Source: Octopus sinensis
Taxonomy: Eukaryota
Length of the DNA: 64,000 nucleotides
Direction of reading: 5' to 3'
Assembly (NCBI RefSeq): GCF_006345805.1
Contig: NC_042997.1
Coordinates: 201,376,001-201,440,000 of the forward strand
Part shown: piece after piece, positions 3,116 through 52,063 of the stretch
How the letters are laid out: each line of letters opens with the position of its first letter
Position numbering within the stretch: position 1 is the first letter of the stretch
Notes under the pieces: generated by a model
Told to the model about the DNA's origin: nothing
Database searches by the model: none
The model's input: only the letters and a program-made list of their open reading frames with translations
Position numbers and translations under genes: made by a program

Positions 3116-3826
3116 ATAGCAGTTGTTTTAATCTCAGCTCATCTCTAATTAAACACACCACAGCAGTTGTTCCAATCTCTAATTAAACACACCACAAGAG
3201 TTGTTTTAATCTCAACTCATCTCTAATTAAACACACCACAGCAGTTGTTTTATTCTCAGCTCATCTCTAATTAAACATACCACAGCAGTTGTTCCAATCT
3301 CAGCTCATCTCTAATTAAACACACACCACAGCAGTTGTTCCAATCTCAGCTCATCTCTAATTAAACACACACCTCAGCAGTTGTTCCAATCTCAGCTCAT
3401 CTCTAATTAAACACACACCACAGCAGTTGTTCCAATCTCAGCTCATCTCTAATTAAACACACCACAGCAGTTGTTCCAATCTCAGCTCATCTCTAATTAA
3501 ACACACACCACAGCAGTTGTTCCAATCTCAGCTCATCTCTAATTAAAAACATCACAGCAGTTGTTCCAATCTCAGCTCATCTCTAATTAAACACACCACA
3601 GCAGTTGTTTTAATCTCAGCTCATCTCTAATTAAACACACCACAGCAGTTGTTTTATTCTCAGCTCATCTCTAATTAAACACACACCACAGCAGTTGTTT
3701 TAATCTCAGCTCAGCTCATCTCTAATTAAACACACCACAGCAGTTGTTTTAATCTCAGCTCATCTCTAATTAAACACATCACAGCAGTTGCTTTAATCTC
3801 AGCTCATCTCTAATTAAACATACCAC
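3116..3826. repeat. Minisatellite, about 43-45-bp unit, about 16 copies
   Basis: Tandem cacagcagttgtt(cc/tt)aatctcagctcatctctaattaaacac(ac). Confidence 0.95.
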
Positions 3827-8787: not shown

Positions 8788-10420
8788 CTGAGAGAAATGT
8801 AGGACATAAGAAGCATCAAATGTGGTGTGCAAGAGAGACGTTTGCGCTGGTATGGTCATATACTACAGATGGATGAAGAGAGATGTGTGAAGAAGTGCCA
8901 CTCCCAAACAGTTGAAGGAATCCTGGGTAGAGGTAGACCCAGGAAGACATGGGATGAGGTGGTCAAGCATGACCTTCAAGCGTTGAGCCTCACAGAGGCA
9001 ATGATGAAAGACTGAGAACTCTGGAGATATGCTGTAACTGCGAAGACCCGGCAAATAAAGCGAGTTCATGGCTGTATCCAACACTAGTTTCACATAACCA
9101 GCTGCAGCCCATTCAAAAGTACCTTGGATCATAGGGCGACCTGCTGTGCTTATCTATGATCATAGGGCAACCTGCTGTGCTTGAGGATACCTATTGAGTC
9201 AAGTACATCAACATCAAAATAAAAATCAAATGGAAATTGTAGCTGTGATACCTGTGCCGGTGGCACATAAAAAGCACCATCGGAATGTGGCTGATGCTAG
9301 CGCCGCCATTGACTGGCTTCCATGCTGGTGGCATGTAAAAAGCACCAACTGATTGTGGGCTTTGCCAGCCTCCTCTGGCCCCTGTGCTGGTATCGCATAA
9401 AAAGCAGTGGTGCTGGTGCCACATAAAATTAACTGATGATGGTACCACATAAAAAGCAGTGGTGCTGGTGCCAAGTGCAAAGGATTTGTGCTATGCCTTG
9501 TAAAATGCACTGATGCTGGTGCCATGTAAAAAAAAAATGCACTGATGCTGGTGCCATGTAAAAAAAAATGCACTGATGCTGGTGCCAAGTGCAAAGGATT
9601 TGTGCTGTGCCTTGTAAAATGCACTGATGCTGGTGCCATGTAAAAAAAAAAAGCACTGATGCTGGTGCCATGTAAAAAAAAAAGCACTGATGCTGGTGCC
9701 ATGTAAAAAAAAAATGCACTGATGCTGGTGCCATGTAAAAAAAAAAGCACTGATGCTGGTGCCATGTAAAAAAAAAAAGCCTGATGCTGGTGCCATGTAA
9801 AAAAAAAATGCACTGATGCTGGTGCCATGTAAAAAAAAATGCACTGATGCTGGTGCCAAGTGCAAAGGATTTGTGCTGTGCCTTGTAAAATGCACTGATG
9901 CTGGTGCCATGTAAAAAAAAAAAGCACTGATGCTGGTGCCATGTAAAAAAAAAAAGCACTGATGCTGGTGCCATGTAAAAAAAAAATGCACTGATGCTGG
10001 TGCCATGTAAAAAAAAATGCACTGATGCTGGTGCCATGTAAAAAAAAATGCACTGATGCTGGTGCCATGTAAAAAAAAAAAGCACTGATGCTGGTGCCAT
10101 GTAAAAAAAAAATGCACTGATGCTGGTGCCATGTAAAAAAAAAAAGCACTGATGCTGGTGCCATGTAAAAAAAAAAAGCACTGGTGATGGTATCATGTAA
10201 AAAGCATTGGTGATGGTGCCGAAGGTGCAGCATAAAAGCCACTGGTGTTGGTGCCAATTAAAAAGCATTGGTTCTGGTTCTGTGACACACAAAACGCAGT
10301 TGGTGCTGGTGCCCAGTAAGAAGCACTGGTGTTGGTACCATGTAAAAAGCAGCCAGTAAACTTTGTAAAGTGGTTGGCATTAGGAAGGACATCCAACTGT
10401 AGAAACCAAGCCAAAACGGA
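8788..10420 (+). mobile_element. RTE LINE 3' fragment (ORF C-terminus plus 3' UTR)
   Basis: QERRLRWYGHILQMDEERCVKK...RGRPRKTW motif typical of RTE C-termini; 3' UTR matches the copies at 11500 and 13780. Confidence 0.9.
9400..10260. repeat. About 31-bp minisatellite expanded inside the RTE 3' UTR, with higher-order interruptions
   Basis: More than 20 copies of (a)n-gcactgatgctggtgccatgt; variant ccaagtgcaaaggatttgtgct.tgccttgt recurs at about 9471, 9585 and 9856. Confidence 0.95.
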
Positions 10421-49755: not shown

Positions 49756-50254
49756 CTAGCAGTATCGCCCGGCGTTGCTCGGGTTTGTAAGGGAAATAAC
49801 TATATAAGCATTTTTAGAGAGTTATAGCCAAAAAATAGGGAAAAAATGCATTAAAAATGGAAAAAAAATTAAGGTAAATTTCTTTTTAAATCGTTGACAC
49901 ATCGTAGATATTTTTAGAGAGTTACTTCCCTTATATAATAGCGAAAAAAATACATTAAAAATGGAAAAAAAATTAAGGTAAATTTCTTTTTAAATCGTTG
50001 ACACATCGTAGATATTTTTAGAGAGTTACTTCCCTTATATAATAGCGAAAAAAATGCATTAAAATGGAAAAATATGATGGTAAATTTTTTAAAATCGTAG
50101 ACTCATCGTAGACGCGCGCTAATACCCAGAAGGGCTCGATATGACTCACGACTATAAGATACCCGGTTTTGGTTACACTGCACCGCAAAATGTGGGAGTA
50201 GTTAGGAATCTAAATCGTAGGAGACAGACACACACAACCACTCTTATATAAAGA
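49756..50254 (-). mobile_element. Non-autonomous Helitron with an internal tandem repeat of about 104 bp
   Basis: Minus strand 5' TC, 3' hairpin CCCGAGCAACGCCGGG then CTAG, inserted between A and T, no TSD. Confidence 0.85.
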
Positions 50255-51673: not shown

Positions 51674-51743
51674 TAAAAAATAACTGTCCAACCATACTCC
51701 TTCTTGTTGACTCCAATTTAATCAATATATATATATATATATA

Positions 51744-51780
<37 letters not shown>

Positions 51781-51793
51781 CGGTGTCTGCTAC

Positions 51794-51839
51794 TCTAGGC
51801 CGATGAAGGACAATGATCCTGAAACACGGTGTCCCTAGA
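51794..51839 (+). ncRNA. Type I hammerhead ribozyme motif (U4C core variant)
   Basis: tctagg-CCGATGA-AGGA-caatga-TCCT-GAAA-CA-cgg-TG-TC-cctaga: 6-bp stem I, 4-bp stem II, 3-bp stem III, GUC triplet. Confidence 0.8.
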
Positions 51840-52005
51840 TGCAGTTCCAGCAGTTGGGGGTGTTTGTCTCCCCTTCGTATGTGTATATAAAGACACAGGA
51901 TAAAATGTGTCGAAGCTGTCAGGAGGCGTTCGATGCCTCCTAGGGCTATATAACGGTGGTGTACCCCCTACTGTCACGTTCTTGTTAGATTGACAGTATA
52001 CAACC

Positions 52006-52063
<58 letters not shown>

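Follow-up and report, generated by a model that had tools for sequence, protein, structure and literature searches.

The element at 51778..52012 (+ strand) of the window, by which we mean the whole 64,000-bp stretch of DNA that was analysed, is best read as a recent, 5′-truncated copy of a non-LTR retrozyme that lies within a TA microsatellite, was probably inserted by an enzyme of Penelope type and is probably silent; to this reading as a whole we assign a probability of about 0.8. That the element is a truncated retrozyme copy can be taken as nearly certain. It consists of positions 364 and 1–234 of a young 364-bp hammerhead repeat and lies between two (TA)n runs, the left and right target microsatellites at 51725..51777 and 52008..52063. 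The copy starts about 10 nt past the inferred start site of the unit and lacks 130 bp of it, including the promoter-like segment and the 55-bp tail. At its other end, TTATAT at 52007..52012 (+ strand) corresponds to unit position 234, a fixed end of the family, and merges into the TA target. By its sequence this is an ordinary truncated insertion, and a recent one since only two private substitutions (51849 and 51891) separate it from 32 near-identical arms. As the promoter-like segment is missing and only one ribozyme is present, the window copy is likely inert. Minisatellites were also seen in the window at 3175–3826 (period 44/90), 9384–10351 (period 32/63) and 49834–50112 (period 104).

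A type I hammerhead occupies 51787..51844 and is made up of an outer helix, stem I, stem II and the stem III region, all on the + strand, as are the features that follow. The outer helix, CUGC/GCAG, is set off by an internal loop, UAC/U. Stem I (UCUAGG/CCUAGA, 6 bp, 51794–51799 with 51834–51839) leads into the core strand CCGAUGA (51800..51806), which has C instead of U at position 4 (U4C) in agreement with the family consensus, and stem II (AGGA/UCCU, 4 bp, 51807–51810 with 51817–51820, CAAUGA loop) is followed by the GAAA of the core (51821–51824). Loop III, CACGGTG at 51825–51831, precedes TC at 51832–51833, and the near-palindromic stem III region ACACGGUGU (51824..51832) provides a minimal stem. 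The predicted cleavage site, which we take from standard hammerhead numbering to be GUC/C, falls at 51833..51834. Downstream, 51845..51888 is the 3′ strand of a long rod whose upstream partner is missing from the window copy; in full units the equivalent segment is paired to the leader together with some 25 nt that precede the start. Two hairpins, GACACA/UGUGUC (51892–51897 with 51906–51911) and AGGAGGC/GCCUCCU (51921–51927 with 51935–51941), and a subterminal hairpin, UACUGUCA/UGACAGUA (51969..51998), complete the copy. The original prediction had listed the hammerhead, hairpins, TA runs and a repeated heptamer, and each of these motifs was found where it had been placed. Visual inspection also raised a type III fold through the first heptamer, which was rejected for its poor stem I and because the heptamer is absent from sister families. 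Against Rfam, the window piece gave no hits at the gathering threshold and 43 matches at E ≤ 10, none of them to hammerhead families. The hammerhead motif exceeds chance, because it recurs about 400 times and its stems covary with sister families.

Tandem copies gave a unit period of 364 bp; the unit is non-coding and within the 150–450 bp range of retrozymes. A genome search returned 1926 candidates, and among the 40 that were scored, the top copies were 98–100% identical. Exact matches to a 17-mer of stem I and core numbered at least 401 genome-wide, 388 with C4 and 13 with U4, while reversed 17-mer controls gave no matches genome-wide. In this family of about 400 genomic copies, U4C is thus the consensus and not a product of decay, which settles whether C or U is usual at this position, a check that had been proposed beforehand. 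C4 lies in a CpG, where decay would run toward the canonical U, and it is common to subfamilies that are about 80% identical. Such a core would escape a canonical hammerhead descriptor. Two cores in tandem were found in copies L026/L027, L087 and L111, and the longest natural array met was under three units. The only T4 run in the unit, at position 289–292 (L026:1425–1428), coincides with one fixed end. Assembled contigs from runs not on record as RNA cover the unit and the ORF1 cassette described below, with starts, ends and strand not readable from them. Back-junction reads would not single out a circle, since genomic multimers contain the same junction.

These data bear on the retrozyme-like monomer of about 230 nt that had been proposed from the window alone. 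Its retrozyme-like character is backed by paralogues, a natural multimer, covariation and a strongly folding circle, and the tandem multimers that were to be sought do exist. The size was wrong: with its missing 130 bp the island falls short of the 364-bp tandem period. The heptamer CGGTGTC, present at 51781–51787 (+ strand) as the ordinary leader of the unit and again at 51827–51833, had been taken to mark a unit-length junction, yet intact copies have CCAGCTGAC ahead of the first heptamer, and the heptamer is missing from sister families. Nor does it change along with loop III, as the leader stays CGGTGTC in subfamilies with loop III CACGTG. Apart from the heptamer being present at both places, nothing favours the island itself as a monomer whose ends mark the circle junction. 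The tandem period already refutes this; the island is truncated on its left, stops on its right at one of the two fixed ends of the family, and has heptamers that do not covary, leaving that reading with practically no weight.

An older sister family has the canonical core in 29 of 30 motif rows, a 31st row having come from a family-A copy. In the two-family alignment, stem I was 99% paired with three of its six pairs changed on both sides. Across the 24 distinct rows of the covariation alignment, drawn from both families, 91% of cells were paired, two-sided changes occurred in 7 of 14 pairs and the covariation score was 0.361 compared to 0.211 for shuffled and at most 0.127 for slid alignments, figures which represent a handful of independent events between related families. 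This pattern suggests that the hammerhead is under selection. Further families retain the topology with new stems and a palindromic loop III (CATG, CGCG, CTATAG or CTGCAG), and their cores read UUGANAA (U3-A8), UUGACGA (U3.G8) or CCGACGA. The change from C3-G8 to U3-A8 seen in sister families is a known natural covariation, and the variant has been reported in Cercyon (PMC4209133; this and the other sources given by identifier are cited for the portions of their text that were available). The U3-A8 core was observed in L213–L216, L222, L265 and L266, with stem I GCUGCA/UGYAGC and loop III CGCG or CATG. U3.G8-core families (UUGACGA) were observed in L206, L209 and L230–L250, and the youngest LINE subfamily lands mainly in these. 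U4C in a viroid hammerhead lowered activity in vitro and still supported infection (PMC3088659). The octopus family carries the same core change as that viroid, unlike which it has U4C as the consensus of a genomic family; within the literature covered, with subscription journals mostly outside it, the viroid work was the only report of U4C in a hammerhead that was found.

By itself the 229-nt window piece folds modestly (z −2.1), whereas the full unit as a circle reached −136.3 kcal/mol versus −92.2 ± 5.2 kcal/mol in 60 shuffles (z −8.5). The fold favours the + strand (−79.5 versus −63.1). In 16 of 16 haplotypes from three families, a stretch of 23–27 nt ahead of the start is base-paired with the segment that follows the ribozyme, which implies selection on read-through or circular RNA. 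The stem III sequence did not pair alone and gave −10.7 kcal/mol as a two-strand duplex; its pairing probability was about 0 in the monomer and in the unconstrained dimer. In the monomer, the core CCG pairs with the CGG of loop III (p 0.99), an inactive pairing that C4 favours. For the natural dimer (G000:C5:98887597–98888249), energies of −187.5 for a double hammerhead and −179.4 for two single hammerheads were obtained, with a minimum free energy of −190.4. The natural dimer is hence predicted to favour the double hammerhead over two single ones, and the models incline us to the view that dimers still cleave. Amphibian hammerhead ribozymes cut as dimers (PMC7229834), and eight of nine frog retrozyme dimers were uncleaved in vitro (10.64898/2026.07.22.740005).

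The hammerhead could instead be weak or dead, with read-through linear multimers being copied by a Penelope enzyme and U4C persisting as cleavage would be irrelevant. The detrimental effect of U4C on the viroid ribozyme in vitro (PMC3088659), the dominance of the CCG:CGG pairing in the monomer and the several non-canonical cores among sister families all fit this, and linear multimers could yield the arms of more than one unit described below. On the other hand, C4 sits in a decay-prone CpG and is yet held at 388:13 and shared by the ~80%-identical subfamilies, the stems, the palindromic loop III and the U3-A8 swap covary, and natural arrays are under three units at longest. We consider a weak or dead ribozyme unlikely.

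The footprint of insertion was read from the first 30 of the 388 exact matches, which represent 25 insertions with 39 arms. In this sample, 32 of the 39 arms ended at position 234 (16 arms) or 289 (16 arms), and 29 of these 32 ran into TA. Arms in both orientations were present in 13 of the 25 insertions, and 17 arms exceeded 370 bp, that is, more than one unit. Penelope-like elements (PLEs) are described as having an inverted truncated arm, a one-sided tail of 30–40 bp and a bias for (TA)n (10.1101/2021.04.23.441226). An inverted 5′-truncated arm, a one-ended tail and a microsatellite target were likewise found here, the tail being 55 bp, not 30–40 bp. By analogy, mobilisation by a putative Penelope-type enzyme is probable. 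Intact 775–781-aa frames with RT and GIY-YIG domains of PLEs are present in the genome, where a GIY-YIG search gave 147 matches. In 43 PLE loci (30 of the 147 matches and 13 longer stretches) no unit-like sequence was found and the termini were unrelated to the unit; other PLE families may exist. An RT plus GIY-YIG frame was absent beside every unit examined, so the unit is not an autonomous PLE, and the window element does not map as an ordinary fragment of a coding PLE in those 43 loci, the outcome that would have counted against the original prediction. Among the PLEs, a young two-ORF element was observed at L190:1174–7091, with a 479-aa ORF1 overlapping a 781-aa RT/GIY-YIG frame, CCAAT/TGACGTC-rich terminal repeats and a hammerhead of its own.

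A 1.75-kb cassette with the gene for a 454-aa CCHC protein interrupts the unit in 5 of the 25 insertions. Atlas neighbours of this protein include ZCCHC3-like RNA-binding proteins, and no homologs at E ≤ 0.001 were found among 7990 candidates. It is homologous to ORF1 of a LINE (25%, E 2e-30) with an intact APE-RT-zinc-finger ORF2, and cassette and LINE have a common 3′ end. HAL1 elements are ORF1-only as well, and the cassette resembles them as an ORF1-only derivative with a common 3′ end. The LINE has the domains of Tx1 elements, APE, RT, a C-terminal zinc finger and a CCHC ORF1; from these domains and its target preference we infer that it is of L1/Tx1 type. The homolog search gave no clade name for it, the nearest named RT homolog being from Argonauta hians (65%).

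Cassettes are flanked by host duplications of 11–19 bp, occur in tandem arrays and carry remnants of former hosts' leaders. Their hosts are several hammerhead families, and they also lie behind TATA-like boxes of other hosts. Template jumping was rejected as the source of the junctions, because duplicated sequence of the new host flanks the cassette on either side, external to the leftovers of older leaders. Among the 30 closest LINE loci, 18 end at a hammerhead unit start, of which many may be copies of one composite, 5 at a tandem element, 1 at U2 nucleotide 1 and 3 elsewhere (one of these, judged by eye, at a hammerhead unit that has mutated), and for 3 the 3′ end lay out of view. Independent evidence for targeting comes from the occurrence in several hammerhead families and in U2. 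More distant LINE copies sit behind TATA boxes. In a U2 gene cluster (L302:4000–9583, G000:C3), a full-length LINE has its 3′ junction at U2 nucleotide 1, and at its 5′ end the U2 promoter is followed by an 11-bp duplication, then by a leader from a sister retrozyme and then by the LINE. That leader indicates that the transcript started at the ATCG of the sister retrozyme. One cassette also ends at a U2 5′ end, with the duplication not visible on its 5′ side. For Keno, the insertion site in U2 is internal. What the landing sites have in common seems to be a transcription start and not a particular sequence. Neither a non-LTR element targeting transcription starts nor Tx1 in retrozymes was found in the literature covered, which lay mostly outside subscription journals and Repbase.

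Three further observations concern these elements. A dispersed repeat with CCAAT and TATAAAA boxes (L065–L084, L042, L049, L050, L053, L062) carries, at what is likely its start, arrays of 3–4 ORF1-only cassettes. In L201, L202, L205 and L223, distant ORF1-only paralogues (25–40% identity) form mixed tandem arrays with one junction motif. At about 7770–7830 of L344, a LINE 3′ end leads into ATCGC, pyrimidine-rich sequence and a GC hairpin; this sequence had no Rfam hit and looks like that of a small snRNA, for instance U7.

With the cassette adjoining the unit in 5 of 25 insertions, the unit might be the terminal repeat of a coding element, either an RT-coding PLE or a composite with the ORF1 cassette, and the window copy a solo repeat. 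Divergent cassettes indeed occupy divergent units, and in a tree of 25 cassette proteins, from which the length filter removed one outgroup row, proteins clustered by host with switches (9 changes versus 17.8 shuffled). Set against this, the 11–19-bp duplications are of whichever host flanks the cassette, U2 and TATA-promoter hosts are also entered, leftovers of older hosts' leaders are carried along and the cassette protein is homologous to a LINE ORF1, whereas no RT frame adjoins any unit and PLE termini are unrelated. A terminal-repeat origin appears very unlikely to us.

In full units, ATCAGT lies 57 bp ahead of the ATCG start. The corresponding pattern, A[TC][CA]AGT and mostly ATCAGT, was found 57–59 nt upstream in 18 of 20 U1 genes and 57–61 nt upstream of 24 of 30 U2 5′ ends, and upstream of none of 20 U6 loci. 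For the retrozymes, to which we gave our own family letters A–F, rows with a preceding element tail were left out and overlapping loci were partly de-duplicated. The motif was present at 56–59 nt in 51 of 66 rows of family A (45 of them at 57), at 51–54 nt in 23 of 25 rows of family B, at 55–57 nt in 7 of 11 rows of family D and at 59 nt in 4 of 9 rows of family F, as well as in 2 of 5 rows of family C and 2 of 4 of family E. In the window, ATCAGT has a background of 0.0003 per base and the looser pattern one of 0.0015; the match is only 6–7 nt long and was noticed after the fact. ATCAGT also opens an RNA hairpin in the retrozyme, and a TATA-like run is present in the unit at about −30. A 3′ box pattern read by eye from the U1/U2 flanks was not found in the unit. 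Taken together, the sequence leans toward a promoter of snRNA type rather than a TATA or Pol III promoter. The retrozyme leader captured by the LINE copy in the U2 gene suggests, indirectly, that this promoter works.

A TATA-type promoter, or a PSE plus TATA (Pol III) promoter, with ATCAGT incidental or serving the RNA hairpin, would account for the TATA-like run near −30 and for the sole T4 run of the unit at position 289, a fixed end; the same LINE family also inserts behind plain TATA boxes. We hold it to be a doubtful alternative, given that the motif is missing from all 20 U6 loci and that U1 and U2 share the motif distance with families A, D and F. Moreover, in one sister family a T4 run directly follows the ribozyme, and the retrozyme promoter appears to drive transcription of LINEs longer than 5 kb that contain T runs. 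Among U6 loci, a variant tandem array was observed at G000:C1:141926002–141953129, with an octamer-like ATGCAAAT near −75 and TATA near −30.

Under the preferred reading with an snRNA-type promoter, multimeric copies would be transcribed by Pol II from ATCG, about 32 nt ahead of the core, and the RNA would read into the next unit because the unit is without a 3′-box-like motif. Pairing via their near-palindromic stem III, two weak hammerheads would then form a double hammerhead and cut, and the 364-nt monomer would close into a rod-like circle in which the promoter DNA sequence is carried along. A Penelope RT/GIY-YIG enzyme would nick (TA)n, prime at the UUAU sites 234 and 289 and copy round the circle. 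The L1/Tx1-type LINE and its ORF1-only derivative would insert at the start, borrow the promoter and travel with the retrozyme. Jointly, promoter-bearing retrozymes, a Penelope enzyme and a start-site-targeting, promoter-less LINE lineage may form a three-tier parasite system, to which, taken as a whole, we give even odds. In such a system, non-canonical cores (U4C, U3.G8, U3-A8) would be tolerated as cutting is gated to the dimer, and the Penelope enzyme would spread retrozyme circles into (TA)n. The LINE would recognise Pol II starts as such, in retrozymes, U2 and TATA-type hosts alike, insert at +1, steal the promoter and ride the retrozyme to new sites.

The family has the unit size, the hammerhead in each unit in tandem, the copies and the circle fold of metazoan non-LTR retrozymes, and cleavage is predicted. 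It shares with them a non-coding unit of 150–450 bp (350–390 bp in mussel) with a type I hammerhead in each (PMC7229834), and a GC content below 50%, monomers and short multimers, a predicted self-paired circle and co-occurrence with PLEs (PMC7229834; 10.64898/2026.07.22.740005). It differs from them in the family-wide U4C core, in mostly dispersed, inverted, two-armed (TA)n insertions rather than long arrays, in the promoter motif shared with U1/U2 and in LINE parasitism at the start. Newt satellite 2 is a hammerhead repeat of about 330 bp with an internal snRNA-type Pol II promoter (Coats, Zhang and Epstein 1994, as cited in PMC2220036), a combination that the octopus unit would share if its promoter is of that type; the octopus family differs in its mollusc-like genome, variant core and Penelope-type dispersed insertions. 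With the hammerheads of PLE terminal repeats (pLTRs) it has in common the short palindromic helix III and the dimer model (PMC4209133), and with PLEs the inverted 5′-truncated arm, one-end tail and (TA)n bias (10.1101/2021.04.23.441226), whereas the octopus unit has no RT/GIY-YIG frame, helices I (6 bp) and II (4 bp) of canonical size and a 55-bp tail. Target-specific LINEs of the Tx1 clade include Keno in U2, Tx1L in Tx1D, and Tx1-Mar (PMC4494074, PMC4640811). The octopus LINE resembles them in its APE-RT-zinc-finger ORF2, multicopy gene or transposon targets and tandem arrays (PMC4494074, PMC4640811), and differs in landing at U2 nucleotide 1, at hammerhead-repeat starts and behind TATA boxes.

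The significance of these results rests on the family and its LINE parasite, not on the window copy. Transcription and mobilisation of animal retrozymes have been described as an open question (10.64898/2026.07.22.740005), for which the family supplies three testable leads: a candidate promoter, an insertion-marked start site and a footprint of Penelope type. With U4C as the consensus core, whole families are missed by canonical descriptors and by Rfam. If the promoter is indeed of snRNA type, the case of newt satellite 2 would be extended to a distant phylum, in a mollusc-like genome. If the LINE does aim at start sites, this would constitute a new targeting rule, possibly by a route via basal transcription factors.
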